Assembly (NCBI GenBank): GCA_035385585.1
Contig: DAOOKJ010000003.1
Coordinates: 1 to 60,333, forward strand
Direction of reading: 5' to 3'
Length of the DNA stretch: 60,333 nt
Origin: Minisyncoccota bacterium
Lineage (GTDB): Bacteria > Patescibacteriota > Minisyncoccia > UBA6257
Within the stretch, counting starts at the first letter, position 1; each line of letters opens with the position of its first letter. The position numbers were made by a program, and so were the translations under genes. This document shows positions 10,887 through 36,030 of this stretch, one piece after another. The notes beneath the pieces are model-generated. The model searched no databases. It was given only the letters and a program-made list of their open reading frames with translations, and was not told the origin of the DNA.

Positions 10887-10966
10887 TGGTGGCATGTGCG
10901 GGATTTGGACCCACGTTTCATCCGTGAGAGGGATGCGTCCTAGACCGGGCTAGACGAACATGCCAC
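10887..10966 (-). tRNA. tRNA-Glu (anticodon CUC), CCA encoded
   Basis: Minus-strand GTGGCAT...ATGCCAC acceptor stem, TTCGTCTAG..GGAC D-arm typical of tRNA-Glu, anticodon stem-loop CATCC-CTCTCAC-GGATG, GGGTCCAAATCCC T-arm, terminal CCA. Confidence 0.85.
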
Positions 10967-11137
10967 ATAACTTTCAAGAGCCTTTCTGTTTTTTATTCTT
11001 TTAAGCCTCCTTTCCCACTGTCTTGCTTTTTTTAAAGTAAGAAATTCCTCCTGAGGTATTAAAATCCATAGGGAATAAAGCTTAGTCGAAAATACTTTAC
11101 CCTGGATCAGTAAAAGCTTCTTTTTCCGCAATAACAC
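10940..11137 (-). pseudogene. 5'-truncated GIY-YIG (UPF0213-like) nuclease remnant running into tRNA-Glu
   Basis: GKVFSTKLYSLWILIPQEEFLTLKKARQWERRLKRIKNRKALE resembles the C-terminal two thirds of short GIY-YIG proteins. The GIY/YIG N-terminal motifs are absent, there is only a GTG start, and the 3' end overlaps the tRNA by 27 nt. Confidence 0.4.
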
Positions 11138-11155
11138 CCTAAAAAATTTTTAGGA

Positions 11156-11557
11156 CTAAAAATATTCTTCTAAAAATCTCTTTAACTCCTCATTGGTTCT
11201 CTCATTTGAAGAAATCGTTTTTTCCATCCGTTCTTTTAACCATTGTTCAAACTTATTTTTGTCATCAAATTCTTCTTTATTTATAACCCAATGTTCATCG
11301 TGCATTGTTGAACCTAAAATCTGAATAATTATTTTATTTTTATCATCTTTATATAATCTGTAATCTTGTCCATATATCAAATTTAATATTTCTTCATATG
11401 TCTTCCATTTATCTCCATTTTCAGGTGAGGGGGGCGGTGGTGGTGGTGCTTCGGTTGTAAGCTCTGGCAAGTTTTTTGTTGGATTTTGTTCCATCTCTTT
11501 TGCTTCCTTCTCTTTTTCTTTTTTTTGAGGAGGCATTGACTCGAATTCAATAGGCAT
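11156..11557 (-). CDS. Hypothetical protein with poly-proline tract
   Basis: 133-aa ORF with a PPPPPPSP linker followed by a small globular part. No motif recognised. Confidence 0.55.
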   Translation of the reverse strand: MPIEFESMPPQKKEKEKEAKEMEQNPTKNLPELTTEAPPPPPPSPENGDKWKTYEEILNLIYGQDYRLYKDDKNKIIIQILGSTMHDEHWVINKEEFDDKNKFEQWLKERMEKTISSNERTNEELKRFLEEYF

Positions 11558-11664
11558 AATATCATTTTGAAGTTAAAGTTTAAATTCGACCTTTATAATT
11601 GTATAATTATTATTATTTATTTTCAATTAAAAATTTCTCTACTAAGGTCTTCATTTCTTCAGGA

Positions 11665-11838
11665 CTAATTAGAAATAATTGTTCCATTTGGCCATCTATA
11701 TGATGGATTGTAAGCAATAATCACATCAGCATAATTATACCCTATTTCCATAGATTTTTTGCAGGAACTTTCTATAAATACAGCTTTGCCGTTTAAAATT
11801 GTTTTTATTTTAGAGTTCTTTCTGGCTTTTTCTTTCAC
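11665..11838 (-). pseudogene. Decayed fragment paralogous to the middle of the 400-aa ORF at 15010-16212
   Basis: Translates to ARKNSKIKTILNGKAVFIESSCKKSMEIGYNYADVIIAYNPSYRWPNGTI against ARKNSKIELFADNTIAFIEGTHKRAMEIGYENADIIVAYNPKFDWGNGII in the 400-aa protein, about half identical. It has no proper start and begins 1 nt after the stop of the 672-aa gene. Confidence 0.6.
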
Positions 11839-11839
11839 G

Positions 11840-13858
11840 TTATTTTGTAATTTTAATTTTTTCTCGAAATAAGGGATATTGATTTTTGAAATTTTCTATC
11901 TCCTGCATTTTTTTATAAGCATCATTTTTAGGGATAAAAATATTAATGTCGTCTACTTCTTCCAAATTTATGGCTCCTTTAATTACTGCTACGATATAAG
12001 GTTCTATCTGTGGATTATCATTCAGTGTAGTAATTGGTTCTAATACTAATCCTGGTAATGCTCTTTTAATATTAAGTATAGATTTTATTATAGAAATATG
12101 TTCTAATGAAAATGAAAAGTAATCCTTGTTATGACCTTCAAAATAAAAAAAGATGCGATCTTTAAGATTTATCGGTTTTATTAAGAAGAAAACGTCGCCA
12201 TACCCTCCCCCTGTACCCCCTCTTTTAAACTCGTTGAAATTTACTGTTTGTCGCCCCCCGATAAAAGTTCCATAAACTAATGGAGTGCCACGTTCAAAAC
12301 CAAAGTCCATTTCTTGAGGATGTATGGCATTTCCCTTAAGTTCTAATTCACCCCAATATAGAGGATCCTTTTCCCTCATCTTTATTAGCTCTAGAGTCGG
12401 ATAAATATATCCTGTGTCTAAAATCTTTTCTAAACTCTTAAAATCTCGATTAGTACAAATATAATTCTGTTTGTTAACTAACTCTTGTTGCTGTTTTAGC
12501 AGTTGAAAAACTAATTTCTTATCAAACTTTTTTGTATATCTTTCTTTATTTTTATAAAATATTTTTTGACTCTCTTGATCAGCTTCGATTTGATCTTGTG
12601 CACTAATGGCTTTTTCTCGTACTTTATCTCCCATTGTATTAGAAATTAAATAAAACAAACTATGATATAAACCATTATCAGATACGTTACGTAATAACTG
12701 TTCTTGTCCAATGTAAGGTATTGGTTTGTCTAAAATTTTTGTTATACCTTCATCTAATAAAATCGATATATTCTCTTTTGGGGCACGACTTACTTCTTCC
12801 ATTTTTATTAAGTCGGGTAAGTGTGACACTGCAAAATCTTTTAATTTCACTGATAGATTATGTATTTGTATTATATTAAGATTTTTTTTCTTGTTATCAG
12901 ACGTTATATTCATCATTTGCTCGAGATTAATATCTTGCTCCTTGAAATCATCTAATGCCTTATGAATATGGTAGATAACCCACTCTAAATCTTTTTTCAA
13001 TGTTCCAAAACCATTATCAGTATAGTAATCGATATCTATATCTATTAAATTTCCTTTCTGAATTTGTTCCTCTAAATTTTGTCTTTGATTTTCTCGTTCC
13101 TTTTGTTTGTTTAATAGTAACGAAAAGTACTCTAATTTTCTTTTGTCTCCATTTTGCCCATACTGTTTTTGTAAAATTTGACTCGCACCTTCTAAAGTAT
13201 TAATTAATTTATTCGCTACTTCGGAAATGGTTTCTTCTTTATAAGAAGATACAATATCTTCTAATGCTTTATCTAAAGCAACAGAATCTCTTTTGTCTAT
13301 TATATTCATTAATTCGGTAATCTCTGATTTAATCAATTGCATTTCTTTACTTAATCGTGTTTCTGCAAATAACTTATTTTTTTGTTTAACCTTAATACCG
13401 CCATAGATAGAGGATACAGTAAAAAATTCCGCTAATTGTGTTCTTGTATTTTTGAAAGACTCAATATTTATTCTCTTAATATTAGAATCTATTTTTGAAT
13501 CGTTTTCTATATTTTGTTTATAATATTCTTCGTCCCTCAATGTTACTTTAAAGTATGGGAATACTTCTGCCTCTAAATAATCCATAAGCTCTTTTTTCTC
13601 AAGGGAATCTCCGTACAAACCTTTGTTTATTAACCAATAGGAATTGAACATTTCACTTAGATATTCTTTGGAATAATTTGCATTTGCTCCTCGCTTATCT
13701 GGAGTTTTTTGAACTTTATCTTCTGGTTTATAAGTATCCTCATTTAACTTATTTAAAACATTAGGAGATTGATTTTCTATCTGTTGATCAGGATTATCCA
13801 GCGAACCGCTTCCGCTAAATACCTCTGGTGAATAATTAATTTGATTGAAATTAGGCAT
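11840..13858 (-). CDS. Large hypothetical protein (672 aa from the internal ATG)
   Basis: Long uninterrupted ORF. I prefer the start MPNFNQINYSPE at 13858 because it matches the N-terminus of the 400-aa ORF. The track start at 13909 would overlap the dehydratase remnant. Confidence 0.65.
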   Translation of the reverse strand: MPNFNQINYSPEVFSGSGSLDNPDQQIENQSPNVLNKLNEDTYKPEDKVQKTPDKRGANANYSKEYLSEMFNSYWLINKGLYGDSLEKKELMDYLEAEVFPYFKVTLRDEEYYKQNIENDSKIDSNIKRINIESFKNTRTQLAEFFTVSSIYGGIKVKQKNKLFAETRLSKEMQLIKSEITELMNIIDKRDSVALDKALEDIVSSYKEETISEVANKLINTLEGASQILQKQYGQNGDKRKLEYFSLLLNKQKERENQRQNLEEQIQKGNLIDIDIDYYTDNGFGTLKKDLEWVIYHIHKALDDFKEQDINLEQMMNITSDNKKKNLNIIQIHNLSVKLKDFAVSHLPDLIKMEEVSRAPKENISILLDEGITKILDKPIPYIGQEQLLRNVSDNGLYHSLFYLISNTMGDKVREKAISAQDQIEADQESQKIFYKNKERYTKKFDKKLVFQLLKQQQELVNKQNYICTNRDFKSLEKILDTGYIYPTLELIKMREKDPLYWGELELKGNAIHPQEMDFGFERGTPLVYGTFIGGRQTVNFNEFKRGGTGGGYGDVFFLIKPINLKDRIFFYFEGHNKDYFSFSLEHISIIKSILNIKRALPGLVLEPITTLNDNPQIEPYIVAVIKGAINLEEVDDINIFIPKNDAYKKMQEIENFKNQYPLFREKIKITK

Positions 13859-13862
13859 AATT

Positions 13863-14228
13863 TTATATTTCTGAGCAATTAGTGGCACCCATAATAGCAT
13901 CATCGCCATAATTAATTTTTATTCGTTCCCTATTAGTTATAATATCTCTTCTACCTTTAGCACAGATAGTAATTCCAATTGTTTTAGAAAGATTTTTAAC
14001 AAATTCAACTTTATCTAAAAAATTCTCTGGCATTTGCAAATTGTAATAATCACTCATTGATTTTAATTCACCGCTATTTGGTGTTACTATTACTTTTGCC
14101 TTTTTTAATTTATCAATATATTTTGTTTCTAAAATAATACCTATTGCATTAGCATCTATATAGAAAAACCAGGTTATTCTCTCTTTCGCTGTTCTTATAT
14201 TTATTGACTTTTTCTGCTCTAAATTGAA
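13863..14228 (-). pseudogene. NAD(P)HX dehydratase (YjeF C-terminal/NnrD-like) internal fragment
   Basis: The open frame reads ...FYIDANAIGIIL...KAKVIVTPNSGELKSM...ITICAKGRRDIITN...INYGDDAIMGATNCSEI*. This matches the vIDADAL / LTPHxGE / vlKG..tvI / tGnpgmatgGsGDvL order of the family, but about 80 N-terminal and about 70 C-terminal residues are missing, and the only Met gives 64 aa. Confidence 0.6.
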
Positions 14229-14251
14229 TTACATAAATTCTATTCTAAAAT

Positions 14252-14965
14252 TTAGCTATTTTTATTGTTTGGATTCTTAACATTTTTTTCTTTTTCTCTT
14301 TTATCATCCTCCTTAAAACCGATTTCCTCCCCGGGCTCCTCTGGTTCCAATTCCCCTAAAATTTCCTCTTCTAAAGTTTGGCTACTACCCTCCTTTTTAT
14401 TTACAACATCTATTGTAATTTCATCTAGTGGAACAGCCGCCTTCAAGGGGCCGTGTCTATACCGCACAGATTCTCTTATGAATTCTTTAATATATATATA
14501 ATATTGAGAAAACCGCCAACTTTTATCCTCTCTTGCCTTATAACCACTTTTTCCCAACATTTGGGTTAAGACATGTTCTATTAAGTCTTCCTCATCAAAA
14601 GGATAAAGATATTTATTAATTTCACCTTTTAAAACCCCCATCTGTCCAAAATGAGAAATCATAGCTTGTTTAATTTCTTCTTTAAGCAATTCATAATTTT
14701 CTTCAAACCACTTATCATCTCTTTTTTCTATCCGAGTATGGTAATTAAGATAAAGCCACCCCCTCTTTTTTGCTCTTAAAGCAGTATCCTTTGAAACACC
14801 AAACTTTTTCCTAATCTCTTGAGTAGTTAGTTGAGGGTCAATAAGAATCTTTTTTCTTTCTATTGATTCGCCTCTTTTTTGGTTAGAACCATTTTCTTCA
14901 TTTTCTTCATCTTCTTTTTTTTTATCTTTCATTTGACTCTGATAAATTTTGTCTAAATTTTCCAT
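14252..14965 (-). CDS. Hypothetical protein with N-terminal helix-turn-helix, acidic tail
   Basis: LTTQEIRKKFGVSKDTALRAKKRGW looks like a sigma-region-4/terminase-small-subunit style HTH. The rest is unassigned. Confidence 0.55.
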   Translation of the reverse strand: MENLDKIYQSQMKDKKKEDEENEENGSNQKRGESIERKKILIDPQLTTQEIRKKFGVSKDTALRAKKRGWLYLNYHTRIEKRDDKWFEENYELLKEEIKQAMISHFGQMGVLKGEINKYLYPFDEEDLIEHVLTQMLGKSGYKAREDKSWRFSQYYIYIKEFIRESVRYRHGPLKAAVPLDEITIDVVNKKEGSSQTLEEEILGELEPEEPGEEIGFKEDDKREKEKNVKNPNNKNS

Positions 14966-15009
14966 GAATTTAAATGTTTTATATTTATATTACGCCCTTA
15001 AAAATTAAA

Positions 15010-16212
15010 TTAGCCTTCTTTAAAACGTAATTCTATCTCCTCTCTCAATTCTCTCAACTGCTTCAATCTTTCTTCCTTACTTTTTATCAAATTTTTCAAA
15101 TTATTCATTTTTTCCTCTAAATCTCCTAAAGTACTATCATCACGCAACCCAAAAATTTTTTTAATTTCTTCAACCGCTGTCCCCCTCCTGTAATTACTAT
15201 CTTTTATAGAAAGAGTTATTTCATTCTCTAAACGCCTTAAACTCACTATTTTATCTTCTAGCATTACTTCTTCCATATAATTTTTAATTTGTTCCGGAGT
15301 AAGCAAGGGGTCTTTTCCAATCGGTGAACCAATAATATTCTGCTGACCGCCCCACTTTGGGTCAATTTTTTTTAATCTCTCTAATAATTTTTTAATATCA
15401 AAATCTACATTATTATCTCTTCTTGCAATGGTAAACTTTGGCGTAATAATTCCGTTTCCCCAATCAAACTTAGGATTATAAGCAACAATTATATCGGCAT
15501 TTTCATATCCTATCTCCATTGCTCTCTTATGCGTTCCTTCTATAAAAGCAATTGTATTGTCAGCGAATAATTCTATTTTAGAATTTTTTCTTGCTTCTTC
15601 TAAACTTTCCTTATCTTTTAAATATAATTCTTCAATTTCTTTGTCTTCCACTTCATTTGTCAAAAGTTTTTTAACAAACAAAAGATTCTCTTCTATTGGT
15701 TTCCTTTCTTCAAAAACTTTATAATAAGCGGCTCGCAATTTCTGATTTGCCTCAGTCCAATCTTTATCTTCAATTTTTAATAATTCTTGTCCTTGTTCTT
15801 TAAAAACTTTTGGTCCTAATCTATCTAAAATTCCTATTGCCTTGGCTAAATTTTCATCAAAATTTTTATTTTCTTTTCTTAGCATTAAAACCGCCATTGC
15901 GCCTAAAGAATCCAAATCCTGACGAACAGTTGCCATTTTCCCTTCTGAAACTTTAGATAAATCAAATTCTAAAGCCTGTTCAATTGCTGAAGGAGTTTCG
16001 GGAGTATCATTATCTTTATGATGGTCAAGATTTATTCCTTCAAAACCAGGAGTGGTAATTTCTATCCCTATTTCAATTCCTTCGTAATTAGGTTCTTTCG
16101 GGTTTATAATAGTGACTTCGGATTTAATTTTTTCTAACTCAATTTTATCTTTGTTATCCGGGCCACCACCTCCTTCTTCAGGTGAATAAAAAGTTTGATT
16201 TAAATTAAGCAT
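15010..16212 (-). CDS. Hypothetical protein (400 aa)
   Basis: Uninterrupted ORF. Its N-terminus MLNLNQTFYSPE is shared with the 672-aa ORF. It contains NLDHH and DLDSLGAMAVL strings reminiscent of DHH-family motifs but in non-canonical order, so it is not assigned. Confidence 0.65.
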   Translation of the reverse strand: MLNLNQTFYSPEEGGGGPDNKDKIELEKIKSEVTIINPKEPNYEGIEIGIEITTPGFEGINLDHHKDNDTPETPSAIEQALEFDLSKVSEGKMATVRQDLDSLGAMAVLMLRKENKNFDENLAKAIGILDRLGPKVFKEQGQELLKIEDKDWTEANQKLRAAYYKVFEERKPIEENLLFVKKLLTNEVEDKEIEELYLKDKESLEEARKNSKIELFADNTIAFIEGTHKRAMEIGYENADIIVAYNPKFDWGNGIITPKFTIARRDNNVDFDIKKLLERLKKIDPKWGGQQNIIGSPIGKDPLLTPEQIKNYMEEVMLEDKIVSLRRLENEITLSIKDSNYRRGTAVEEIKKIFGLRDDSTLGDLEEKMNNLKNLIKSKEERLKQLRELREEIELRFKEG

Positions 16213-16284
16213 ATTTTTTATTAATTTATATTTACCTCTACATTATATCACTCATATCTAGAATTATCAAAGAATTATGATAAA

Positions 16285-16470
16285 CCTCTGAAGGGCAGAC
16301 TAATCGGATAAAATATTTAAAAAAGTAGTGAAGGAGAGAGTTTTTTATCCTCCATAGCTTTAAGCGTAGGGGGATTCCTTCGTTCCTGAAAATCAGGGGA
16401 AGGGGCACTACTCTTTTTATATCCTTTTTGTCTGCCCTTCAGAGGTAACGACTGAAATTTAAGTCGCTAC
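16285..16470 (-). promoter_or_regulatory. Structured 5' leader domain upstream of the 400-aa ORF
   Basis: A perfect 16-bp closing helix, cctctgaagggcagac (16285-16300) with gtctgcccttcagagg (16430-16445), encloses 129 nt with nested helices (gtagtg/cactac, cctga-aaa-tcagg, ggata/tatcc). A further hairpin follows at 16445-16470. Confidence 0.45.
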
Positions 16471-16484
16471 TTAATTACTGATGT

Positions 16485-16515
16485 ATTATAGCACATTACT
16501 TCTCTCCTCCTTCAA
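16485..16515 (-). promoter_or_regulatory. Putative extended -10 promoter for the 400-aa ORF
   Basis: Minus strand reads GTAATGTGCTATAAT, the same 15-mer as promoter P1 at 22583-22597. The -35 is weak (TTGAAG at 19-nt spacing). Confidence 0.4.
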
Positions 16516-16600
16516 ACCTAAGATAAAAAATCTTAAACTTGAAGGAAGAAAGGAGGTTTTAACCCAATTATGGAAACCTCCCAAAAACTCCATTTAAACC
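16499..16600 (-). repeat. Hairpin module copy 1 (long hairpin H1 plus GGAGGTTT/AAACCTCC extension)
   Basis: Arms cttctctcctccttcaa and ttgaaggaagaaaggagg, followed by ttttaacccaattatggaaacctcc. This copy lacks the second, shorter hairpin H2 that accompanies H1 in copies 2-5; the promoter above replaces it. Confidence 0.7.
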
Positions 16601-16623
16601 CATTTACTCGTTCGATTTTATAT

Positions 16624-16800
16624 TTATAGAACTACCTGTGTAGCGATGAGAACAACGAAAATCCACAAGAAAAACTTAAGGGTGAACTTTACAAATTCAT
16701 CCTCATCGTCCACTAGCTCATTTATCGTAAGGTGAAGAAAGCCACCAAGATAGGAGAGCACTAAACAAAACAAAATTTTTAAAATGATCTCCTTCACCAT
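16624..16800 (-). CDS. 58-aa two-TM mini-protein (below the ORF-track cutoff)
   Basis: AAGGAGG, then 5 nt, then ATG. Translates to MVKEIILKILFCLVLSYLGGFLHLTINELVDDEDEFVKFTLKFFLWIFVVLIATQVVL. Paralogous to the 50-aa ORF at 17939-18091. Confidence 0.6.
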   Translation of the reverse strand: MVKEIILKILFCLVLSYLGGFLHLTINELVDDEDEFVKFTLKFFLWIFVVLIATQVVL

Positions 16801-16805
16801 CTTTA

Positions 16806-17044
16806 CCTCCTTTTTCTCCTTTTGTTCCCTGCTATTACTGGTCAGGTATCCAGGAGAAACTGGATCTCAGATCCTCTAAGATCCAGTATTAAAAAGACAA
16901 TGATTTTTCTTCTTAATGCTGAATCTTAGAACTCATTCCAAGAAGTTTTTCTCTTCCTTTTCAAGGTGCTAAGAGGATTTCTCCTCCTTCAAATCTAAGA
17001 CTCATTGTCTTAAACTTGAAGAAAGAGAGGAGGTTTTAACCCAA
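16806..17044 (-). repeat. 239-bp direct repeat, copy A (leader of the 58-aa ORF; contains module copy 2)
   Basis: Base-for-base identical to 17669-17907 by manual comparison. Begins at the SD (cctcc) and ends at ttttaacccaa. Confidence 0.9.
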
Positions 17045-17102
17045 CTTTGCTACCAAGCACCTCCTCAAAAAAATTAAACTTGATAGCAAAACAATATAGC
17101 TA

Positions 17103-17663
17103 CTAGCTAATTATTATATCTATAATTCTCCCCTCTGGAGGGGGAGAAAAGAACCCTAATATTCTTCTTTTTACCACTATATTCTTCCCTTCTTTGAGGG
17201 CTCTATAAGCCCTCAATTCATTGTGGCACCATCCACATAATTTTAAAAAGGATTCGAGATCATTCTCTGTTGTCCCTATAAACTTTAGAGACACTATTTC
17301 TCCCTCGAAATTCGCTTTGACTATTTTTTTCAAGTTAACTGAATCTAAAAAACTCTTTAAGTAATCTGTCATACTGGAAGTGTTAACTGCATCTACTCTT
17401 CTTCTAATATCTTCAAACAGGTCTCCTAAATTTTTATAAATATCAATTCCTGTTTGAGATAGGATGAACTCTCTAACTTTTTCATATTCTTCCCATGTGC
17501 CTGTCATTAATCCTTTCACCCAATCACTTTTCAATGTAAAAGTGATTGGGGATACTTGTGGGATACGCAAATAGTATCCTGTTCCTGCGTTCCATCCTTT
17601 ACTGCCGAAGCTTTCATACCCGGCCTCGGCATCTATTAATCCAAATAATTTTATTTGGACCAT
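17103..17663 (-). CDS. Hypothetical protein (186 aa)
   Basis: AAGGAGG, then 5 nt, then ATG. Uninterrupted ORF, G+C-richer than host genes, no motif recognised. Confidence 0.65.
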   Translation of the reverse strand: MVQIKLFGLIDAEAGYESFGSKGWNAGTGYYLRIPQVSPITFTLKSDWVKGLMTGTWEEYEKVREFILSQTGIDIYKNLGDLFEDIRRRVDAVNTSSMTDYLKSFLDSVNLKKIVKANFEGEIVSLKFIGTTENDLESFLKLCGWCHNELRAYRALKEGKNIVVKRRILGFFSPPPEGRIIDIIIS

Positions 17664-17668
17664 CTCTT

Positions 17669-17907
17669 CCTCCTTTTTCTCCTTTTGTTCCCTGCTATTA
17701 CTGGTCAGGTATCCAGGAGAAACTGGATCTCAGATCCTCTAAGATCCAGTATTAAAAAGACAATGATTTTTCTTCTTAATGCTGAATCTTAGAACTCATT
17801 CCAAGAAGTTTTTCTCTTCCTTTTCAAGGTGCTAAGAGGATTTCTCCTCCTTCAAATCTAAGACTCATTGTCTTAAACTTGAAGAAAGAGAGGAGGTTTT
17901 AACCCAA
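17669..17907 (-). repeat. 239-bp direct repeat, copy B (leader of the 186-aa ORF; contains module copy 3)
   Basis: Identical to 16806-17044. Confidence 0.9.
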
Positions 17908-17938
17908 TTATGGAGACCTCCTAAAACTCCATAACCCA

Positions 17939-18091
17939 TTATAAGGCACTCATCAGGAGAAGAATTATAAGACACCAAGAAAATACTTGGAGCCTCGTCT
18001 TTCTCCTTTTATCCTCCACTTCCATAGAGATGAGGAGATGGAGGATCAACCCGTAACCAATAATGAGGCCACAAATAACAACGTATCTCAA
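17939..18091 (-). CDS. 50-aa two-TM mini-protein (TTG start, below the ORF-track cutoff)
   Basis: AAGGAGA, then 7 nt, then TTG. Translates to (M)RYVVICGLIIGYGLILHLLISMEVEDKRRKTRLQVFSWCLIILLLMSAL. It shares a C..G..LHL.I...V.D...F.W pattern with the 58-aa ORF. Confidence 0.5.
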   Translation of the reverse strand: MRYVVICGLIIGYGLILHLLISMEVEDKRRKTRLQVFSWCLIILLLMSAL

Positions 18092-18163
18092 TTTTTATTC
18101 TCCTTTGTCCCTGGCCTTAAAGGTTTAAGGGAGTTATCTCCCACCAGAGGGGTAGCTCAATAC

Positions 18164-18218
18164 ATCTTGCCACCATAAAAATTCTTAAAGATTTTATGAA
18201 TCTTTATGGTGGCAAGAT
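18164..18218 (-). repeat. Conserved hairpin H3, copy a
   Basis: atcttgccaccataaa pairs perfectly with tttatggtggcaagat. Repeated at 19018-19074. Confidence 0.7.
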
Positions 18219-18240
18219 ACAAAATAAGACATAGATAAAT

Positions 18241-18374
18241 TTCTCTTCCTTTTCAAGGTACTAAGAGGATTTCTCCTCCTTCAAACCTAATATCGGAATA
18301 ATAAGCTTGAAGGAAGAGAGGAGGTTTTAATTTTTTAAGCGGAGACCTCCTACTAATTTATAATGCAACTCCGC
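18241..18374 (-). repeat. Hairpin module copy 4 (H2 plus H1 plus gcggag/ctccgc hairpin)
   Basis: ttctcttccttttcaaggtactaagagga, then tttctcctccttcaa...ttgaaggaagagaggagg, then gcggagacctcc...ctccgc. Confidence 0.7.
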
Positions 18375-18387
18375 AAAATTCTACAAG

Positions 18388-18939
18388 TTAGTCTAGTAAG
18401 TCATTTTCCTCCCCTGTCAGAGCAAGAACACCATCTGAACTAATTTTATAAATGTATTCACTTGGTGCCCCGTATAATCGTCCCCCAACAGTCATTTTTA
18501 TCGTACTACCAAATCTACATTTTAATATCCACTGTCCACCACTACCCATTGCCCCTGCTGCTCCTTGAGCAATAACACCACTTAAAATCTCCTTTACTCC
18601 TTCTGATATTGTTATATCATTACTGCCTCGAAATCCAATATGTCCTCTAAGAACAATAATACATTCATTCTCTGTTTTATTCTCGTGAGCAATCAATTTT
18701 GGACGACCAGAATGAGTTTCACCTATCTCTCCATCAAATATTATAACATTTCCTTTTTCATCTAGTTCGTTCATCTCTTCCGGGGTCAAACCACTTACGG
18801 GTAAAACCCCGAGACGTCTTCCTCTTCCCTCTTCTCCTACCAAAATTGCGGGTATTGTGATTTCTTTATTGTGAAATATAAACAATTGCACAATACCTCC
18901 CATAAATACTGTTGAACCTTTAATTGTAAAAATCTTCAT
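18388..18939 (-). CDS. Hypothetical protein (183 aa, Gly-rich AQGAAGAMGSGGQ segment)
   Basis: AAGGAGG, then 5 nt, then ATG. Uninterrupted ORF, no motif recognised. Confidence 0.65.
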   Translation of the reverse strand: MKIFTIKGSTVFMGGIVQLFIFHNKEITIPAILVGEEGRGRRLGVLPVSGLTPEEMNELDEKGNVIIFDGEIGETHSGRPKLIAHENKTENECIIVLRGHIGFRGSNDITISEGVKEILSGVIAQGAAGAMGSGGQWILKCRFGSTIKMTVGGRLYGAPSEYIYKISSDGVLALTGEENDLLD

Positions 18940-19017
18940 TATATCCTCCTTTTACCCACCTGTATCTTTCGATATTCAGGCGTTCTAGTTGGATCCTAGA
19001 ACTTTTGGGTGTGGTAG

Positions 19018-19074
19018 CATCTTGCCACCATAAAAACTCCTAAAGATTTTATGAATCTTTATGGTAGCAAGATG
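19018..19074 (-). repeat. Conserved hairpin H3, copy b
   Basis: catcttgccaccataaa pairs with tttatggtagcaagatg. The single change relative to copy a is a C.A mismatch in plus sense but a G.U wobble in minus-sense RNA. Confidence 0.7.
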
Positions 19075-19093
19075 TAATTAGACAGTTCTGCAC

Positions 19094-19232
19094 TTCTCTT
19101 CCTTTTCAAGGTACTAAGAGGATTTCTCCTCCTTCAAGCTTAATATCCAACATATTAAACTTGAAGGAAGAGAGGAGGTTTTAACCCAACTTATAATTTA
19201 TATGGAGACCTCCCAAAACTCCACCTAAACCC
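19094..19232 (-). repeat. Hairpin module copy 5 (H2 plus H1 plus extension)
   Basis: ttctcttccttttcaaggtactaagagga, then tttctcctccttcaag...cttgaaggaagagaggagg, then ttttaaccc...atggagacctcccaaaactccac. Confidence 0.7.
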
Positions 19233-19442
19233 CTCGCTCTTTTCACAGTAGGTTAGCAAAACCTACCAACCTGGCTTTTGGTCTTTTATGGCCAGGTTAC
19301 TTATCGTCTTTCTCAGCCCTCTATTTTATCAAGGTGAGAAATAGCGATAGTCCCTCTTTGCTTCGGCTTTGGAGATGGTTCTCGCGAACCAGCCGATTCC
19401 CGCGGTCTGACGAGGGTTCCGCGGGAGATTACTTATAAAGTC

Positions 19443-19676
19443 CTACAACTCGACTTTATAAGTAATCTTTGCCTCTTTTCTCTCCAACACCCACCAGGGG
19501 TGGTGGAGAGCAATGAGGTCCTTCGCCTCTTCTTCCTCCCAGAGAATCTCCTCTGAGAGATTCCCTACGGAAGAAAGAGAAGCCATCGAGAAAACTACCC
19601 AACCGTAGTTCCTCGATAGAACCTCAAATTCCTTCTCCCCCATCCTAAGGAGAAGAAATTTTTTCTTTCCTTCCAT
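19443..19676 (-). CDS. Hypothetical protein (77 aa from the internal ATG)
   Basis: The track ORF starts at TTG 19700, but AAGGAGG sits 8 nt upstream of the ATG at 19676 (MEGKKKFLLL...). No motif recognised. Confidence 0.5.
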   Translation of the reverse strand: MEGKKKFLLLRMGEKEFEVLSRNYGWVVFSMASLSSVGNLSEEILWEEEEAKDLIALHHPWWVLERKEAKITYKVEL

Positions 19677-19968
19677 TTTTCTTTCCTCCTTCTGACTCAA
19701 AATTTCCCTGAGGGGCGAGTCACTCCTTGTTGATGGTTCAAACGGCTAAATTTAGCCTCCCACCGCACTAGCATTTTACTAGCCTCAGGTAGTTAGTTTT
19801 TTCTTTTTTGTCTTATTAAAAGCTCAAGACAAAAAAGAAAAATTTAGCTTTCCAGGGCTGCTAACCACAACCCCAACCAAGCTGGCTGCCTCATCAGTTT
19901 CAAGTAGCCAACCTGGAAAACCATTAGAAATGGTTTCGGCTTTGCTTGGTTGAAATAAAAAGATAAAA

Positions 19969-20000
19969 AAAGAGGGCTATACAAATATTTGTAGCCCTCT
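19969..20000 (-). terminator. Intrinsic terminator downstream of the 416-aa ORF
   Basis: Minus sense reads AAGAGGGCUAC-AAAUAUUUGUA-UAGCCCUCUU followed by UUUUUUAUCUUUUU. Confidence 0.6.
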
Positions 20001-20055
20001 TTTTTATTAATTTTTCTTATCTTATTTTCCTTATCTTAAGTTTTTTACTCTTTCT

Positions 20056-20156
20056 AACAAGTAGAGAGAGAATTAAGAGGGCTACTCAGAAATTCTCTCT
20101 CCACTTGTTAAAATCCTACTTTCAAAGTAAGCGATAAGCAAAATTGTAGCCCTCTT
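20056..20156 (-). promoter_or_regulatory. Set of mutually exclusive helices upstream of that terminator (attenuator-like)
   Basis: aacaagtagagagagaatt (20056-74) pairs with aattctctctccacttgtt (20091-109). This pair is interleaved with aagagggctac (20075-85) and gtagccctctt (20146-56). The latter 11-mers are the same as the two terminator arms. Confidence 0.3.
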
Positions 20157-20354
20157 TGCCTGCCTAAATTTTTGCTTCTCAAAAATTTAGGCAGGTAGAT
20201 TTTTCAATTTTCTCCTAATTTGAATCTACTATTTTCTAAATAATAAACTCAAAGGGCAAACTCTTTCTAAATTCGCCATATCTTGGTGAACTTGGATAGA
20301 GAAGGGAAGAGGAAGAAAGCCTCTTCCCTTACAACCCTTTATAACCCACTGCCA

Positions 20355-21605
20355 TTAGTCCCTTTCCTCCGTAGGGGGTCTATAATGTGTACGACCCCCT
20401 ACAGATCTTATTCCGAGTCCTACTCTACCCAGATTCACCCTTACGGTAGGGTGATCTGGGTGTTTAATTTCAATTATTTTTACATCATCGGGGAAAATAG
20501 CTATATAGCGTTGATGCCAACGACTATATAGCCACTGAACAGGAGAAGGAGAAAAAGTACAAGAAGAAGGATTAGGGGGGTCCTCTCCCACATAGCTGGG
20601 AGGGGGGATCTTTTTGACTTCATAATAATACTTCCCCTCCCCTATTCCATAATCATTGTCCACGGGGTAAAAATAGAGATCCCCTTGACGGGTTTCTCCT
20701 CCCCATTCATTTAACTTAGGATCTTCTCTCACTAAACTAAAAGAGAGAGAAGAATCTTCTCCTATTTTGATCTCCCACGCGAATTTTTTTCTTAGTGTGG
20801 TCCAGATGACTTCAACTCCCCAGAAACTCTTCTTATTATCTCCTTCATCATATAAAGGATTAACAACAAGACTTCCTTTTCCAGAAACAGTCCCAGCAAG
20901 GATGTAATAGGCTGATTTCCTCACACTATTATCATTATCATAGTAACAAAAGGGGAACCAACGAGGATCACATGCTTCCCTATAGACACCGACGGTGATT
21001 TTTCCCACCGGGGTGTCTAAAGTAGTTTGAAGACATTGGGAGCTTCTAAAAGCCCTTGCCCTCCAAAATAACGGCTGCATTTCTTGGGGAAAGAGGGAGG
21101 CATAACCCTTTTTATCTAGGGTCTCAATTAATTTTTGAAACCCCGATTCTTCTTCTATACCTCCTCTAGAAACATGTTGGGAATTAAAATACCCTAAGGC
21201 ATTTTTAGCTTCGCGGTAAACACTAATCCCAATTTCTAAATCCAATTCGGATTCTTCAACCACTTCTCTTAGCCCCTCAATGTAACAATAAATTGCTTTA
21301 TTGAGGGCTATTTGTTCCTCAGAATCCGAAACTAAGTAAGACCTTTTTATAATTCCAACCTCCACTAAGTAGGTCGGATTAGGCACGGAGGCCAATGCCT
21401 TACGTAATTCTTCACTCTTTAAAAAAGGAGTTATTATCCTTTTTTCTTCAATAAATTCTATCTTTTCTCCTTCTTGGGGAATATAATTTTCCCCATAACA
21501 CTTTATGTCTATAAACTTACCTTTATCCACACCCAACTCCCTACGAAGCTGGGCAATGCTTTTGCCGACGAAATCGCCGGCAACAAATATAATTATCTTC
21601 TCCAT
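20355..21605 (-). CDS. Hypothetical protein (416 aa from ATG 21605)
   Basis: AAGGAGG, then 5 nt, then ATG; the track GTG start at 21611 abuts the SD. Long uninterrupted ORF, roughly 45-50% G+C by spot counts, no motif recognised. Confidence 0.7.
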   Translation of the reverse strand: MEKIIIFVAGDFVGKSIAQLRRELGVDKGKFIDIKCYGENYIPQEGEKIEFIEEKRIITPFLKSEELRKALASVPNPTYLVEVGIIKRSYLVSDSEEQIALNKAIYCYIEGLREVVEESELDLEIGISVYREAKNALGYFNSQHVSRGGIEEESGFQKLIETLDKKGYASLFPQEMQPLFWRARAFRSSQCLQTTLDTPVGKITVGVYREACDPRWFPFCYYDNDNSVRKSAYYILAGTVSGKGSLVVNPLYDEGDNKKSFWGVEVIWTTLRKKFAWEIKIGEDSSLSFSLVREDPKLNEWGGETRQGDLYFYPVDNDYGIGEGKYYYEVKKIPPPSYVGEDPPNPSSCTFSPSPVQWLYSRWHQRYIAIFPDDVKIIEIKHPDHPTVRVNLGRVGLGIRSVGGRTHYRPPTEERD

Positions 21606-21611
21606 AGCCAC

Positions 21612-22495
21612 CTCCTTGCCCCTACCTGCCTCTTTTATGAGGTCAGGGCTTATGGGGTGCTAAATCCTTTCAGATTCGGCTTTAAAAAGATAAAGAATTA
21701 TCTCCTTAAAGCCGAATCTGAGAATTCATTTCAAAGAATTTCAAGGTATTTCTCTAAATCAAACAATACCTTAGTTTGATTTAGATATTACTAAGATTCT
21801 TGGGGATTTTATATTTTAAAGGTGCGAGAGGGTAAGGGCACGGATTGGATTGTGCCCTTACCATAAGTTGTGTCGAGTAAGCAAGGTCCCGCTTGCTTAC
21901 CCGCCTTGCTTTTTCAATTGTCTGAAAAAGCAAGGCGGACAAGCAAAGAAAAGTGGGTTAGGCTTTTCTTCTTGTCCCTCCTAATCGGATTTTTAATCCT
22001 AATTAGGGGTGATAGGGGTTAAAGAATTAAAAGGAGCAAAACTCAACAATTAATTCATTTAACGAAATTGAAATTAAACCCTCGTCTTGGTTTAATCCCA
22101 ATTATTTTCCCCTATCAATTTAAGACGAGAAAACTAAAAAATATTTATTTTTCAATTCACTCTCTCCTTGAATACTCTCTCCTTAAAGAAAGTGAAAGGT
22201 AAATATTTTTTAGTTTTTATTTCAAGGTGCTATATTTTGCTTATTTTGATAAAACGCTATCTCCCCAAGCTGAGGAGAGAATTAAGGATTAATTTAAATA
22301 ATTTAAATCCCTAATTTTCTCATTACCTTGGAATAAAAAAGCGGCTAAAGTTTATTTTCTAAGAAGAGAAATCGGGCTCTAATATCAAACTTTTAACCGC
22401 TTTTGCTTAATTTCCGGTATTAAGCTCACCGACTCTCTCCTTAAGTTATTTAATTATAGGGTGCTTTTTTTCTTTATTCTGCCTATTTTTTAAGT
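21612..22495 (-). other. ORF-free, hairpin-dense ~0.9-kb leader or candidate large structured RNA
   Basis: No minus-strand ORF of 60 aa or more. At least 12 helices of 9-18 bp, mostly perfect, for example 21671-85/21706-20, 21831-41/21852-62, 21901-14/21925-38, 22130-47/22200-17, 22337-53/22388-405. Lies downstream of two consensus promoters. Confidence 0.4.
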
Positions 22496-22501
22496 ATCTC
22501 A

Positions 22502-22530
22502 ACTATAGCACACTTTTAATAAAATGTCAA
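22502..22530 (-). promoter_or_regulatory. Sigma70-type promoter P2
   Basis: Minus strand reads TTGACA, then 17 nt ending in TGTGC, then TATAGT. Confidence 0.6.
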
Positions 22531-22582
22531 ATAGAAATTCCTCTTTAAGTTAGTTTTAACTTCTCACTTTATTTTGTCTTTA

Positions 22583-22611
22583 ATTATAGCACATTACAGC
22601 AAAAATGTCAA
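22583..22611 (-). promoter_or_regulatory. Sigma70-type promoter P1
   Basis: Minus strand reads TTGACA, then 17 nt ending in TGTGC, then TATAAT. Perfect hexamers with an extended -10. Confidence 0.65.
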
Positions 22612-22646
22612 GAAAAATTAAAAAAGGGGCAACTCCTTCCCCTTTT
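22612..22646 (-). terminator. Intrinsic terminator of the mraZ-ftsI operon
   Basis: Minus sense reads AAAAGGGG-AAGGAGUUG-CCCCUUUU followed by UUAAUUUUU, 33 nt after the ftsI stop. Confidence 0.7.
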
Positions 22647-22678
22647 CCTGTTTTCATTTTATTTTCAAATTCAATTTT

Positions 22679-24451
22679 TTACTCTATCTTCTCATCTGGG
22701 GGAATGTTGTAATAATTAATTAAAAATTGCTCTACTTCTTTAAAGGCTAAAGTCACGGTATGGCTGGCAGCGCTATTTGGGTCTATAGGCTTGTCCATTT
22801 TCACTAATATTAGGAAGCGAGGGTCTGAAGCCGGAAAAAATCCAACAAAAGTATGAATCTGATCATCTGAATATCCTCCTTTTCCAAATAAAGGAATCTG
22901 AGCTGTGCCAGTTTTTCCCCCTAAACTGTAACCTTTTATTTTGGCATTTCCTCCAAAACCATTTTCAATTACGGAAACAAGCATTGTGGTTAATGTCTGG
23001 GCAGTTTCTTTAGAAATTACCTGTTTTTGCTCTGGTTGGTCAATGGAATGATACACGCCATTTGAGTCTTCTATTGCCTCGACAATATATGGATTTACCA
23101 CTTTCCCTTCGTTTAAAAAAGCAGAATAAGCCCTTAATAAACCAATTGGAGTAACCGTAATTCCCTCGCCATAAGAGGCGGTTGCCAAATGGCTGGGGTT
23201 GGCTTTTGGATATTCCAAATTAGATAAATCGCCAGTAATTTCATTTGGCAGGTCAATGCCGGTTTTTTCATCTAAACCGAACTTTTTAAAATATTCTCTT
23301 AAATTTTGCATTCCAACTCTCTGGCCCACAAAAATCGCGCCGGTGTTAATAGAACGCTCTAAAACTTTTGTCATCGTCACATTTTTTCCATAAACTTCAT
23401 TCCGATAATTATTAATTCTATAACCAGAAATTTCAAAATACCCTTTATCATCATAAGTGGTCTCCGGCGTCACTTTTTTCAAGTCTATTCCTGCTGCCAT
23501 TGTTAAAGGTTTAATTACTGAACCTGGTTCATACATTTCTTCAACCGCGTAATTTTTATAAACTGAATAATCCTTGACTTCATTAAACTTATTTAAATTG
23601 AAAGTTGGCCAATTTGCCAAAGCTAAAATTCTGCCGGATTTTGCTTCCATTACAATGATTGAGCCTTTTACTGCCCCTCGGCCTTTGATTAAATTTTCTA
23701 AAGCCTCTTCGGTCTTAAACTGAACATTTTTATCAATAGTAATAATAAGATTTGCTCCTTCAACTGGGGCTTTATTTGAAGAAAAAAGAGAATAAATTAA
23801 TCTACCCAAAGCATCTCTAACGCCGGAATATTCACCAGGCTGACCAGATAAAATATCTTCATAATAAGATTCAAGTCCGTATCTGCCTTTTATTTTCCCA
23901 TCTTCTCCCTGAGAAACAAAGCCAATTGTTTGACTCAATAGACTATCAAATGGCCAGTAGCGAAATCTTTCTTCCTTAAAATAAATTCCCTTTATTGCCA
24001 TTTCTTTTATAATAGTCATTAGTTCTTCATCTTCAATCCTATTTACTAATGGTTCATAAGGATCGCCCTCTTTATTTAATCTATTAAAAATTTCTTCCTT
24101 CTTCAGGGACACATATGGAGCCAAAGCCTCACTTGTTTTCTGAGGGTCTTCTATTTCTTTTGGAACCGCATAAAGAGACCAATATTTTTTATTAATCGCC
24201 ACCGCGATCTTTTCCTTATCTTTGTCCTGGGTATAAATTAAACCCCGCTGGGGTAAAAGGGTGGCTTTGGCAGAATGAGTAACTTCCGCCAAAGCCCGAT
24301 ACTCTTCATGTTTTAAAATTTGGAGGTCAAATAAACGCACAGTTAAAATCGCAAAAAGGACAATAAAACCTAAATAAATAAAAAAAACTCTTCCAGAAGG
24401 ATTGATTTCTTCATTTGGAAGAATAATTTTTCGTTTATAAGACCGACGCAT
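22679..24451 (-). CDS. ftsI: Penicillin-binding protein, class B transpeptidase (FtsI/PBP2-like)
   Basis: N-terminal TM segment, SVIKP (SxxK), SIN (SxN) and KTGTA (KTG) motifs. Position follows ftsL. Confidence 0.9.
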   Translation of the reverse strand: MRRSYKRKIILPNEEINPSGRVFFIYLGFIVLFAILTVRLFDLQILKHEEYRALAEVTHSAKATLLPQRGLIYTQDKDKEKIAVAINKKYWSLYAVPKEIEDPQKTSEALAPYVSLKKEEIFNRLNKEGDPYEPLVNRIEDEELMTIIKEMAIKGIYFKEERFRYWPFDSLLSQTIGFVSQGEDGKIKGRYGLESYYEDILSGQPGEYSGVRDALGRLIYSLFSSNKAPVEGANLIITIDKNVQFKTEEALENLIKGRGAVKGSIIVMEAKSGRILALANWPTFNLNKFNEVKDYSVYKNYAVEEMYEPGSVIKPLTMAAGIDLKKVTPETTYDDKGYFEISGYRINNYRNEVYGKNVTMTKVLERSINTGAIFVGQRVGMQNLREYFKKFGLDEKTGIDLPNEITGDLSNLEYPKANPSHLATASYGEGITVTPIGLLRAYSAFLNEGKVVNPYIVEAIEDSNGVYHSIDQPEQKQVISKETAQTLTTMLVSVIENGFGGNAKIKGYSLGGKTGTAQIPLFGKGGYSDDQIHTFVGFFPASDPRFLILVKMDKPIDPNSAASHTVTLAFKEVEQFLINYYNIPPDEKIE

Positions 24452-35515: not shown

Positions 35516-35545
35516 TTGACTTTTCTTTTACTTTTATGCTATAAT
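35516..35545 (+). promoter_or_regulatory. rnpB promoter
   Basis: TTGACT-18 nt-(TGC)TATAAT, 6-7 nt before the RNA 5' end. Confidence 0.6.
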
Positions 35546-35551
35546 ATGAAA

Positions 35552-36018: not shown

Positions 36019-36030
36019 ATTATTTTATCA

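Follow-up and report, generated by a model that had tools for sequence, protein, structure and literature searches.

Two tandem consensus promoters at the edge of a chromosomal island point into about 0.9 kb of hairpin-rich DNA before the first island gene, an orphan ORF of 416 aa. What is this stretch? The original prediction offered an exceptionally long regulatory leader or an independent large structured RNA. Its description of a long, strongly promoted, ORF-free and structured stretch before the first island gene stood up, and between its two options our analysis favours the leader. We see about an even chance that the region acts in cis as a leader, serving attenuation, RNA processing, stability and masking of the ribosome-binding site, in a module of promoters, leader, ORF, conserved 3' RNA and terminator.

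Promoters and borders of the proposed transcription unit

The following features frame the leader within the window (the whole 60,333-nt stretch of DNA analysed).

10965 to 22675, ORFs on the minus strand throughout: island of 11.7 kb between ftsI and tRNA-Glu(CUC), from comparison with the relative L036
22620 to 22648, minus strand: terminator-like hairpin past the ftsI stop codon and before P1, AAAGGGG-9 nt-CCCCTTT plus a T-run (read from the sequence)
22611 to 22583, minus strand: promoter P1, TTGACA-17-TATAAT with a TGTGC extended -10 (promoter scan, 12/12)
22530 to 22502, minus strand: promoter P2, TTGACA-17-TATAGT with a TGTGC extended -10 (promoter scan, 11/12)
20355 to 21605, minus strand: 416-aa ORF, SD AAGGAGG 6 nt 5' of the ATG (ORF list, homology searches)
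19960 to 20354, minus strand: conserved structured 3' element (~300 nt of RNA) with a strong intrinsic terminator at 20005-19966 (terminator scan, homologue comparison)

L036, a Ca. Paceibacterota MAG with ~87% nucleotide identity, aligns to the window as far as 22676 and resumes at 10965, with its own 180-nt spacer instead of the island. The leader region therefore sits at the upstream end of this insertion, a horizontally acquired island. None of the island ORFs had a match in Pfam, PHROG, PADLOC or NCBIfam.

Our minus-strand scan re-found both predicted promoters, 81 bp apart and each with the TGTGC extended -10; their inferred TSSs lie at ~22576 (P1) and ~22495 (P2). P1 is the sole 12/12 site of the window. 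Five sites score at least 11/12, and four of these have the TG, the promoter of the RNase P RNA among them. Mononucleotide shuffles of this AT-rich DNA gave ~5 matches of 11/12 per window, and a lone 11/12 match is within chance expectation. P1 and P2 have TGTGCTATA in common and lie on the same strand in an intergenic spacer, directly past the terminator-like hairpin. Their spacing, strand, common TGTGCTATA and spacer position, together with the recurrence of tandem promoters at homologous loci, are beyond chance. Both match the host's strong-promoter form, represented by TATGCTATAAT at the RNase P RNA gene.

The hairpin upstream of P1 is missing from the list of the terminator scan because its loop exceeds 8 nt. 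That scan listed nothing terminator-like on the minus strand from P2 to the 416-aa ORF, and the sole terminator candidate of this interval is a large-loop hairpin at 22404-22326. The 3' element with its terminator closes the transcription unit opened by P1/P2, whose full transcript would measure ~2.6 kb (inferred ends 22576 and 19966). The order of the unit is P1/P2, a ~0.9-kb hairpin array, the orphan ORF, the structured 3' element and the intrinsic terminator.

Length and structure of the leader

Measured to the AAGGAGG (21620-21614), the leader is ~875 nt long from P2 and ~955 nt from P1. The predicted lack of any ORF of at least 60 aa was confirmed on the sense (minus) strand, where the longest ORFs have 53 aa (TTG start) and 24 aa in a check that covered ORFs of at least 20 aa. 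The plus strand has a 101-aa TTG ORF at 21474-21779, probably spurious, that extends over the beginning of the 416-aa gene.

In the minus sense, the leader had an MFE of -318 kcal/mol, compared with -210 ± 10 kcal/mol in shuffles (z = -10.8). The plus sense gave z = -15.8 against shuffles, and the minus-sense fold is better than the plus by only 8-11 kcal/mol. At least 12 helices had been proposed from the sequence; folding gave 14-16 local stem-loop domains, with stems of up to 31 bp. A crude stem scan counted 10 hairpins with at least nine Watson-Crick pairs per 975 nt; coding DNA had ~5 per kb. As modelled, the leader is a chain of simple, independent, near-perfect local hairpins with no ornate fold. 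From 5' to 3' its predicted domains are:

22326 to 22467, minus strand: first leader domain, an A-rich start, then polypurine AAGGAGAGAGU paired with UUUCUCUUCUU (folding)
22216 to 22337, minus strand: multi-hairpin domain of 122 nt (folding)
22132 to 22215, minus strand: long hairpin of 84 nt with arms of 28 nt (89% complementary) and two AAGGAGAGAG copies near the apex (inverted-repeat search and folding)
22010 to 22117, minus strand: Y-shaped domain of 108 nt, -36 kcal/mol (folding)
21831 to 22007, minus strand: five successive simple stem-loops, each of 28-41 nt with a stem of 11-14 bp and an energy of -9 to -20 kcal/mol (folding)
21732 to 21803, minus strand: hairpin of 72 nt with a perfect 12-bp apical stem (folding)
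21661 to 21728, minus strand: hairpin of 68 nt with 31 pairs, -37.7 kcal/mol; 4 G.U and 0 A.C in the minus sense (folding)
21609 to 21659, minus strand: SD-proximal hairpin, its CACCCC pairing with part of the AAGGAGGUG ribosome-binding site (folding)

The five simple stem-loops make up the GC-richer part of the leader, and the strongest window of the structure scan lies at 21801-22000 (z -15.7). GC content is 28-31% over 22000-22800. Stability windows with z < -4 run nearly unbroken over 16300-22300, ~6 kb of gene-poor island DNA, and the unusual structure therefore extends beyond 21612-22611.

Several mismatches had been read as giving G.U pairs in the minus sense only. The example cited for this, 22345 with 22396, is correct, but over all leader stems there are 12 G.U vs 11 A.C, a count that shows no bias and is uninformative as a strand test. 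Since its near-perfect stems fold as well on the plus strand, they could also be palindromes that act at the DNA level or are neutral. The 22 contigs with the locus are 99.9%-100% identical, all from the same strain and with 0 SNPs in the leader, and hence carry no population signal. Anaerobic-digester samples contain this strain, among them JGI 3300009664, 3300009667, 3300010311, 3300010347 and 3300025638. Nucleotide homologues of the leader were found only in these same-strain contigs; BLASTN and nhmmer against the homologous loci gave only the promoter and the SD, and a distant-mode search of a phage collection was negative. Covariation could therefore be assessed only in one hairpin, which has paralogues in the island.

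Homologous loci and a candidate attenuator

The 416-aa family is very rare, with 32 cluster representatives in 1.8 billion. The protein had no match in Pfam, PHROG, NCBIfam or PADLOC, and a profile of the family alignment had none among PDB sequences. Its AlphaFold model (pLDDT 77) retrieved nothing from PDB or BFVD by Foldseek at E <= 0.001; the product has no signal peptide and no known structural role. Viral, genome and metagenome scans added to the family only a phage-like contig and one short contig. In the former (48.6 kb), the homologue lies in an early or replication region beside RecT and PD-(D/E)XK genes, with no comparable leader region.

The promoter and leader arrangement recurs in relatives of the gene. 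L023 (~44% identical) has four tandem TG promoters of 11-12/12, 65-80 bp apart, followed by ~700 nt of hairpins; L028 (~44% identical) has a pair of 12/12 TG promoters at a spacing of 75 bp, followed by ~620 nt of hairpins; and L027, the closest homologue, has a hairpin leader of 367 nt. This recurrence argues for a selected architecture and against an accident. In all four leaders the gene-sense fold beats the antisense fold (by 11, 22, 16 and 42 kcal/mol). Among the homologous loci, leader sequence is unconserved save for the promoters and ~55 nt beside the SD, the latter conserved at the SD-proximal hairpin between the window and L027. The 3' element is conserved among the window, L023, L027 and L028, and exact-pattern scans of viral contigs gave no match to it. 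Besides the 416-aa family, no island protein is shared with these loci. More distant members (L020, L031, L032-35 and L042-L047) have a short leader or none, and further members (P0008-P0012) lie in contexts without a long leader.

Close parallels include phage and ribosomal ones. In the T7 early region, the tandem strong host promoters A1-A3 are followed by an RNase III stem-loop ahead of gene one, and rrn operons combine tandem P1-P2 promoters with a structured leader. The loci described here likewise have consensus sigma-70 promoters in sets of two to four, spaced by 65-81 bp and placed as in T7 at the leading edge where the foreign element is entered, long duplex hairpins ahead of the first gene and a gene homologue in a phage early region. 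They differ in a leader of 0.6-0.95 kb with ~14 hairpins vs one processing site, in the lack of a recognised boxA or nut-like motif, and in the nature of the element, an island integrated in a Paceibacterota chromosome. Leader stems of 24-31 bp are predicted candidates for RNase III-type substrates.

All three copies of the polypurine string AAGGAGAGAG noted earlier are present. The related GGAGAGAG occurs six times in the window vs 1.56 expected, five of the six in the island, and GAGAGAG, an SD-like motif, occurs 10 times in the non-coding flanks of homologous loci vs 0.64 expected (~15-fold). In the first leader domain, the AAGGAGAGAGU/UUUCUCUUCUU fold and a terminator-like hairpin, AAAAGCGGUUAAAAGUUU / AAACUUUAGCCGCUUUU plus UUAUU (the large-loop hairpin at 22404-22326), are mutually exclusive, which makes 22326-22467 a candidate attenuator as modelled. 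The predicted competition is weak in the window (antiterminator -32.6 vs terminator -29.9 kcal/mol, each with z only ~-1.8 vs shuffles). In L028 it is clear: a 14-bp terminator (-17.6) that ends in a U6 tail stands against a purine:pyrimidine helix (-39.7), and both reach z ~-5.5. The terminator-like site of L023 is weak. Such a site lies 110-165 nt past the last TSS in all three promoter-bearing loci; a structural alignment of their first leader domains reached a consensus of only -6 kcal/mol, which is unconvincing.

Protein-mediated attenuation offers a model. TRAP binds GAG/UAG repeats on the B. subtilis trp leader, and PyrR is another case. As there, the GGAGAGAG purine tract would supply the 5' strand of a helix in competition with a terminator-like hairpin, most clearly in L028; unlike there, the window's version is energetically marginal and another 700 nt of leader follow the putative attenuator. 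Long multi-promoter 5' UTRs of highly expressed genes, such as S-layer genes and ompA-type stabilisers, are similar in their tandem promoters and in stable 5' hairpins abutting the RBS, but at tens to a few hundred nt they are much shorter than the window's ~0.9 kb.

Transcription of the unit, its read-through into the ORF, attenuation, RNA processing and whatever the protein contributes are steps that we infer, and a cis-acting leader would most likely work as follows. The first ~160 nt would form the GGAGAGAG polypurine:polypyrimidine helix in competition with the terminator-like hairpin, and a factor on the SD-like purine tract, either the 30S subunit or a protein (perhaps that of the 416-aa ORF), would choose between early termination and read-through. 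The dense chain of stem-loops would then shield the long untranslated RNA from degradation or Rho termination, its perfect 24-31 bp duplexes serving as RNase III-type processing sites, and the last, conserved hairpin would mask the ribosome-binding site. In favour of this reading we also count the repeated hairpins described below and a near-threshold hammerhead ribozyme on the same strand (19950-19870, Rfam search of the island at E <= 0.01), which indicates that island spacers carry functional RNA elements. Several observations weigh against a cis-acting role. At 0.9 kb, the leader far exceeds any obvious cis-regulatory need; its sequence is unconserved, and distant family members manage with a short leader or none; and the window's attenuator candidate is indistinguishable from shuffles.

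Alternative readings of the hairpin array

We consider it unlikely that the leader or its fragments are themselves the product, with P1/P2 yielding an abundant structured RNA that acts in trans, or several hairpin RNAs (for example an SD-mimic, a dsRNA decoy or an RNA partner for the 416-aa protein), and with the ORF reached by read-through only. Two to four tandem consensus promoters do resemble those of stable-RNA genes, the same extended -10 is seen at the RNase P RNA promoter, and the SD-like GAGAGAG is enriched. Given the terminator-like site shortly after the last TSS in three of three loci, release of a short RNA is possible. Next to the gene lies, in addition, the conserved structured 3' RNA, which makes RNA partners for the protein family plausible. 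The 3' element and the hammerhead are better RNA candidates than the leader itself. Against this reading, the leader has simple serial hairpins instead of conserved junctions or loops, no sequence conservation among loci, the purine tract as its only recurring motif and no counterpart in more distant family members.

Known RNA families give the array no home either. At gathering score, cmscan of the whole window returned only RNase P, four tRNAs and the L10 leader; the models of OLE, GOLLD, ROOL, HEARO and raiA, which the original prediction had named for comparison or as a check, did not match, and kinship with these families is not supported. At E <= 10, Rfam gave only miRNA-/snoRNA-type hairpin noise over 21400-22800, far below gathering, and at E <= 0.01 it gave no match to the leader in the island scan and nothing in L023, L027 or L028. 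No known cis-regulatory leader or aptamer family in Rfam was matched. The leader shares with OLE, GOLLD, ROOL and raiA/HEARO a size of 0.6-1 kb, strong structure and a link to mobile or prophage DNA; it differs in its serial hairpins, in the lack of sequence conserved among loci and in being followed directly by an ORF in the same orientation. A single large ornate RNA is not supported, as MFE and span-limited folds gave 14-16 independent local stem-loops and no multi-junction architecture.

That the hairpins are selfish or neutral palindromic repeats (REP-/MITE-like, or local inverted duplications) in a dispensable island spacer, through which the promoters drive the ORF, strikes us as rather improbable. 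The array does share with REP/BIME, ERIC and Correia-type MITEs near-perfect palindromes in intergenic DNA; its stems fold on both strands with balanced G.U and A.C, and it belongs to a gene-poor, highly structured island. Two repeat families, found only inside the island, are a 249-nt pair (99% identity) and a five-copy hairpin element, and one family includes a leader hairpin. Assemblies break at these repeats, and an exact-pattern scan of viral contigs gave no match to the island repeat. Unlike such elements, ~13 of 14 leader hairpins are unique, with no copies in the 60-kb window, in L036 or at the other loci; many dispersed copies were thus not seen within the window, where ~1 of 14 hairpins has paralogues, confined to the island, and no RAYT or transposase accompanies them. 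Other organisms' loci with the same gene family have equally hairpin-rich leaders of unrelated sequence.

The repeated hairpins, moreover, sit at fixed positions just 5' of ORFs and retain minus-sense G.U pairs and compensatory changes. The hairpin at 21661-21728 is 77% identical to 16871-16941 and 17734-17804, just 5' of two other island ORFs; in its two distinct copies 95% of cells pair, with three compensatory double and four compatible single changes. On this modelling we regard it as a candidate for RNase III-type processing or for stabilisation of the RNA. A second hairpin repeat has five copies, with 4-5 G.U pairs kept in all five, in the minus sense only.

A bolder reading, distinctly improbable in our judgement, takes the promoters, leader, ORF and 3' element as an RNA-protein module, so far overlooked, that belongs to CPR bacteria and their phages, with the hairpin array, massively transcribed and fast-evolving, as a functional product. 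The array would be cut into hairpin or duplex RNAs, or would be a GGAGAGAG-rich decoy or scaffold, acting with the 416-aa protein and the 3' RNA, for example in a ribonucleoprotein for defence or counter-defence. Known RNA-protein systems were tried and rejected. For type III toxin-antitoxin (ToxIN-like) loci, TRF gave only two-copy arrays of 8-14 nt with low score and PADLOC no protein match; in the database and structure searches given above, the 416-aa protein showed no RT, RuvC/TnpB, IscB or IS110 domain such as would mark a group II intron IEP, a retron RT or the partner of a TnpB/IscB omega RNA or an IS110 bridge RNA.

Finally, it is very improbable that the region is a DNA-level element of a mobile island (a replication origin, packaging or recombination site) using hairpins or cruciforms plus promoter transcription: the T7 primary origin also has tandem promoters followed by an AT-rich segment, and the region is AT-rich with symmetric palindromes at the very edge of the insertion, its gene having that homologue in a phage-like replication region, but the phage copy has no such region, there are no iterons or tandem repeats and no att-type direct repeats at the island ends, no integrase, replication or terminase gene was recognised in the island, and an origin was rejected by skew for want of a GC-skew inflection.

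To our knowledge, almost nothing is known of gene regulation, RNA processing and mobile elements in Paceibacterota and other CPR bacteria. The locus is a compact, testable unit: its consensus promoters can be used in E. coli, and with them come the 0.9-kb leader, the orphan protein, the conserved 3' RNA and a nearby hammerhead. If the region is a cis regulator, it would be among the longest bacterial 5' leaders and would show how a minimal cell keeps a long untranslated RNA intact; if the array or the 3' element partners the orphan protein, the locus would represent a new RNA-protein system on CPR phages and islands.

An island insertion and its upstream promoters

We compared the window with L036, a Candidatus Paceibacterota MAG contig that lacks the island (PBP 93% identical; ~87% nucleotide identity). 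L036 is collinear with the window to 22,676 and resumes at 10,965 (the 5' end of tRNA-Glu(CUC)), with its own 180-nt spacer between; the window therefore holds an 11.7-kb insertion (10965–22675) between ftsI and this tRNA gene, with the promoters P1 and P2 at its upstream edge. The island ORFs are all on the minus strand, and every one is an orphan, with zero matches in Pfam, PHROGs, PADLOC, and NCBIfam. The island has no recognizable integrase and no att-like direct repeats. Across 19 same-population contigs, we found two SNPs in the 11.7-kb island compared with ~14 in 4 kb of flanking host genes, which suggests recent acquisition.

A spacer (21612–22678) separates ftsI from the 416-aa ORF, all on the minus strand.

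Features around the spacer
22679–24451, minus strand: ftsI, last gene of the mraZ-mraW-ftsL-ftsI cluster
22648–22620: terminator-like hairpin between the ftsI stop and P1
22611..22583, minus strand: P1, TTGACA-17-TATAAT, 12/12, TG (promoter scan)
22530..22502, minus strand: P2, TTGACA-17-TATAGT, 11/12, TG (promoter scan)
20355–21605, minus strand: 416-aa ORF, with the SD AAGGAGG 6 nt ahead of its ATG

The scan bore out the tandem consensus promoters of the original prediction, with P1 the sole 12/12 site in the window. Five sites, P1 included, score 11/12 or more, compared with 5.1 in mononucleotide shuffles, and a lone promoter match therefore means little. The TG extension was present in four out of five sites, the RNase P RNA gene promoter being among those that bear it (TATGCTATAAT, 35535–35545); P1 and P2 have TGTGCTATA in common. 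A second strong promoter (TTGATA-17-TATAAT, TG; 16242–16270, minus) lies upstream of a 400-aa ORF, and an extra exact TGTGCTATAAT without a good -35 ends one repeat copy (16485–16495, minus). Inside the leader, the ~0.9-kb stretch between P1/P2 and the SD, TGCTATATT (22228–22236, plus) resembles an extended -10 of the opposite strand; its -35 is poor, and it forms an inverted repeat with the P1 and P2 -10 regions. It could be an antisense promoter, directed at the bidirectional terminator-like hairpin at 22620–22648.

A hairpin-rich leader and its relatives

The leader was predicted to carry no ORF of 60 aa or more, and its longest sense-strand ORF is indeed 53 aa. On the plus strand, a 101-aa TTG-start ORF (21474–21779) runs opposite the beginning of the 416-aa gene and the last leader hairpins; it is probably spurious. 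The predicted packing into at least 12 helices agrees with a fold of -318 kcal/mol compared with -210 ± 10 in dinucleotide shuffles (z -10.8), and with 14–16 local stem-loops (stems ≤31 bp) in a span-limited fold; the plus strand of the region gave a z of -15.8. All three predicted leader copies of the polypurine AAGGAGAGAG are real, and the window has six copies of GGAGAGAG where 1.56 are expected, with all but one inside the island. The proposal that several mismatches give G.U only in the minus sense was correct for its example (22345 with 22396) but did not extend to the leader stems as a whole, which are balanced (12 G.U vs. 11 A.C); the minus sense is more stable by only 8–11 kcal/mol.

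The family of the 416-aa protein is very small (seven to eight clusters in a word search; 32 representatives in 1.8 billion by full HMMER). In its AlphaFold model (pLDDT 77), the N-terminal part is helical and the C-terminal part is rich in beta structure; the model has no structural match in PDB or BFVD. A homolog with 38% identity is carried by a 48.6-kb phage-like IMG/VR contig (L020/L021/L029; UViG 3300031463_000011), where it sits without a long leader in an early or replication block with AAA, DUF2201, RecT, and PD-(D/E)XK genes, which suggests that the gene family came from phages. In more distant members (L031, L032–35, L042, L043–45, and L047), the leader is short or the gene sits in an ordinary operon. 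The closest subclade shows the same architecture as the window.

Loci of the closest homologs, with protein identity
L023/L024 (44%): four tandem promoters (12, 12, 11, and 11 of 12; all TG; 65–80 bp apart), then ~700 nt of ORF-free hairpins
L028 (44%): a pair of 12/12 TG promoters separated by 75 bp, of which one carries the same TGTGCTATAAT; ~620 nt of hairpins follow
L027 (45%): 367-nt hairpin leader, including a 121-nt perfect hairpin

The leaders of the window, L023, L027, and L028 share no sequence beyond the promoters and ~55 nt by the SD (window and L027). In all four, folding favors the gene-sense strand over the antisense by 11–42 kcal/mol, and GAGAGAG occurs 10 times in the noncoding flanks of these loci (0.64 expected).

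A candidate attenuator was seen in L028, where GAGGAGAGAGU pairs with ACUCUCUCUUC (-39.7 kcal/mol, z -5.5); alternatively, ACUCUCUCUUC can fold on itself into a hairpin of 14 bp with U6 behind it (-17.6, z -5.6), flagged as a terminator by the scan. Analogous folds compete in the window 90–170 nt downstream of the P2 start (AAGGAGAGAGUCGG with CCGAUUUCUCUUCUU vs. AAAAGCGGUUAAAAGUUU with AAACUUUAGCCGCUUUU and a U-run), differing by <3 kcal/mol, with neither distinct from shuffles. In L023, the terminator-like site found at this distance is weaker. This attenuator part of the leader model is suggestive, not established.

Structured elements elsewhere in the island

When z-scores were taken in 200-nt frames slid along the whole window, z < -4 was nearly unbroken over 16300–22300, and structure is thus wider than the leader. 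Outside this zone, the only prominent signals came from tRNAs, the RNase P RNA, the L10 leader, and a handful of isolated frames. The RNase P RNA match (35551–36023, plus; 111.5 bits vs. gathering 100) spans 473 nt for a 367-position model, which suggests that the CPR RNase P RNA here contains sizeable insertions. Two repeat families are restricted to the island, both within the structured zone.

Structured and repeated elements
19960–20354, minus strand: 3' element, directly 3' of the 416-aa ORF (counterparts: L023 3118–3470; L027 2076–2390; L028 3040–3310)
20005–19966: strong terminator closing the 3' element
19941–19880, minus strand: type II hammerhead candidate (33.9 bits vs. gathering 37), ~25 nt past the terminator
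17659–17907 and 16796–17044: 249-nt repeat pair, 99% identity
16503–16604, 16949–17047, 17812–17940, 18240–18330, and 19094–19232: five-copy hairpin element

The noncoding 3' element is conserved at the nucleotide level though the proteins are only ~45% identical. L023 and L027 share ~300 near-identical nt, for which RNAalifold gave 93 pairs with one double and ~17 single changes, all pairing-preserving. The first ~100 nt of the window element are common to these two; with L028 it has in common the GGAGAGAGAA/UUCUCUCUC hairpin, repeated AGAGGGCUA words, and AGAGGGCTA repeats (four exact copies in the window, all within 19971–20155). The element has no Rfam match. The hammerhead candidate has both cores, CGAAAC and CUGAUGA, intact and an extended stem II; the UGGCU of its loop I complements the AGCCA of its 3' tail. 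The 3' element and the hammerhead candidate make a stronger case for functional structured RNA than the leader does, and they indicate that the island spacers would be RNA-active on the minus strand.

The five-copy hairpin has two pairs preserved by double changes, and four to five G.U pairs in every copy, in the minus sense only. Its arms, CCUCCUCUCUUCCUUCAAG.../...CUUGAAGGAGGAGA, pair an anti-SD-like with an SD-like sequence. The 249-nt repeat lies directly 5' of both a 186-aa and a 58-aa ORF, a 5'-UTR module ahead of two different ORFs. The 58-aa ORF, previously unlisted (16626–16800, minus), follows the duplicated module. Its SD (AAGGAGAAAAAGGAGGTAAAGATG) is strong, and its product contains two hydrophobic segments and looks like a small membrane protein. 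Several public assemblies end at island repeats (contig ends 17767–17785 and 19108). The leader hairpin at 21661–21728 has 77% similarity to part of the 249-nt repeat; against this paralog, pairing holds in 95% of cells, and three double changes are compensatory and four single ones compatible, in a comparison of two distinct sequences for which the shuffle control is weak (64/500).

Readings of the leader

The original prediction had left two options, a long regulatory leader or an independent large RNA of OLE/GOLLD/ROOL size, and had named GOLLD, ROOL, OLE, HEARO, and raiA for an Rfam search. No Rfam family reached its gathering score in the leader, E ≤ 10 gave only miRNA-type hairpin matches, and nothing appeared at the homologous loci at E ≤ 0.01. 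Nor did we find tandem repeats like those of type III antitoxins, and the 416-aa partner has no domain typical of known ORF-adjacent ncRNA systems. Serial hairpins and the absence of sequence conservation distinguish the leader from OLE, GOLLD, and ROOL. Its membership in, or analogy with, the giant ornate RNAs is not supported. The reading with the best support is that of an exceptionally long structured leader, which we hold at roughly even confidence.

That the leader yields a trans-acting or processed RNA product is unlikely. Slightly less probable is that the hairpins are neutral or selfish palindromes, and a DNA-level element is very improbable.

Phage early leaders and rrn leaders have tandem promoters plus processing stems. 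They appear to be the closest functional likeness of the long structured leader, which by this analogy would add to their layout a beginning of the attenuation type and an end that masks the RBS. The arrangement itself is of a known kind; attached to it is an uncharacterized protein–RNA module of CPR bacteria and their phages.
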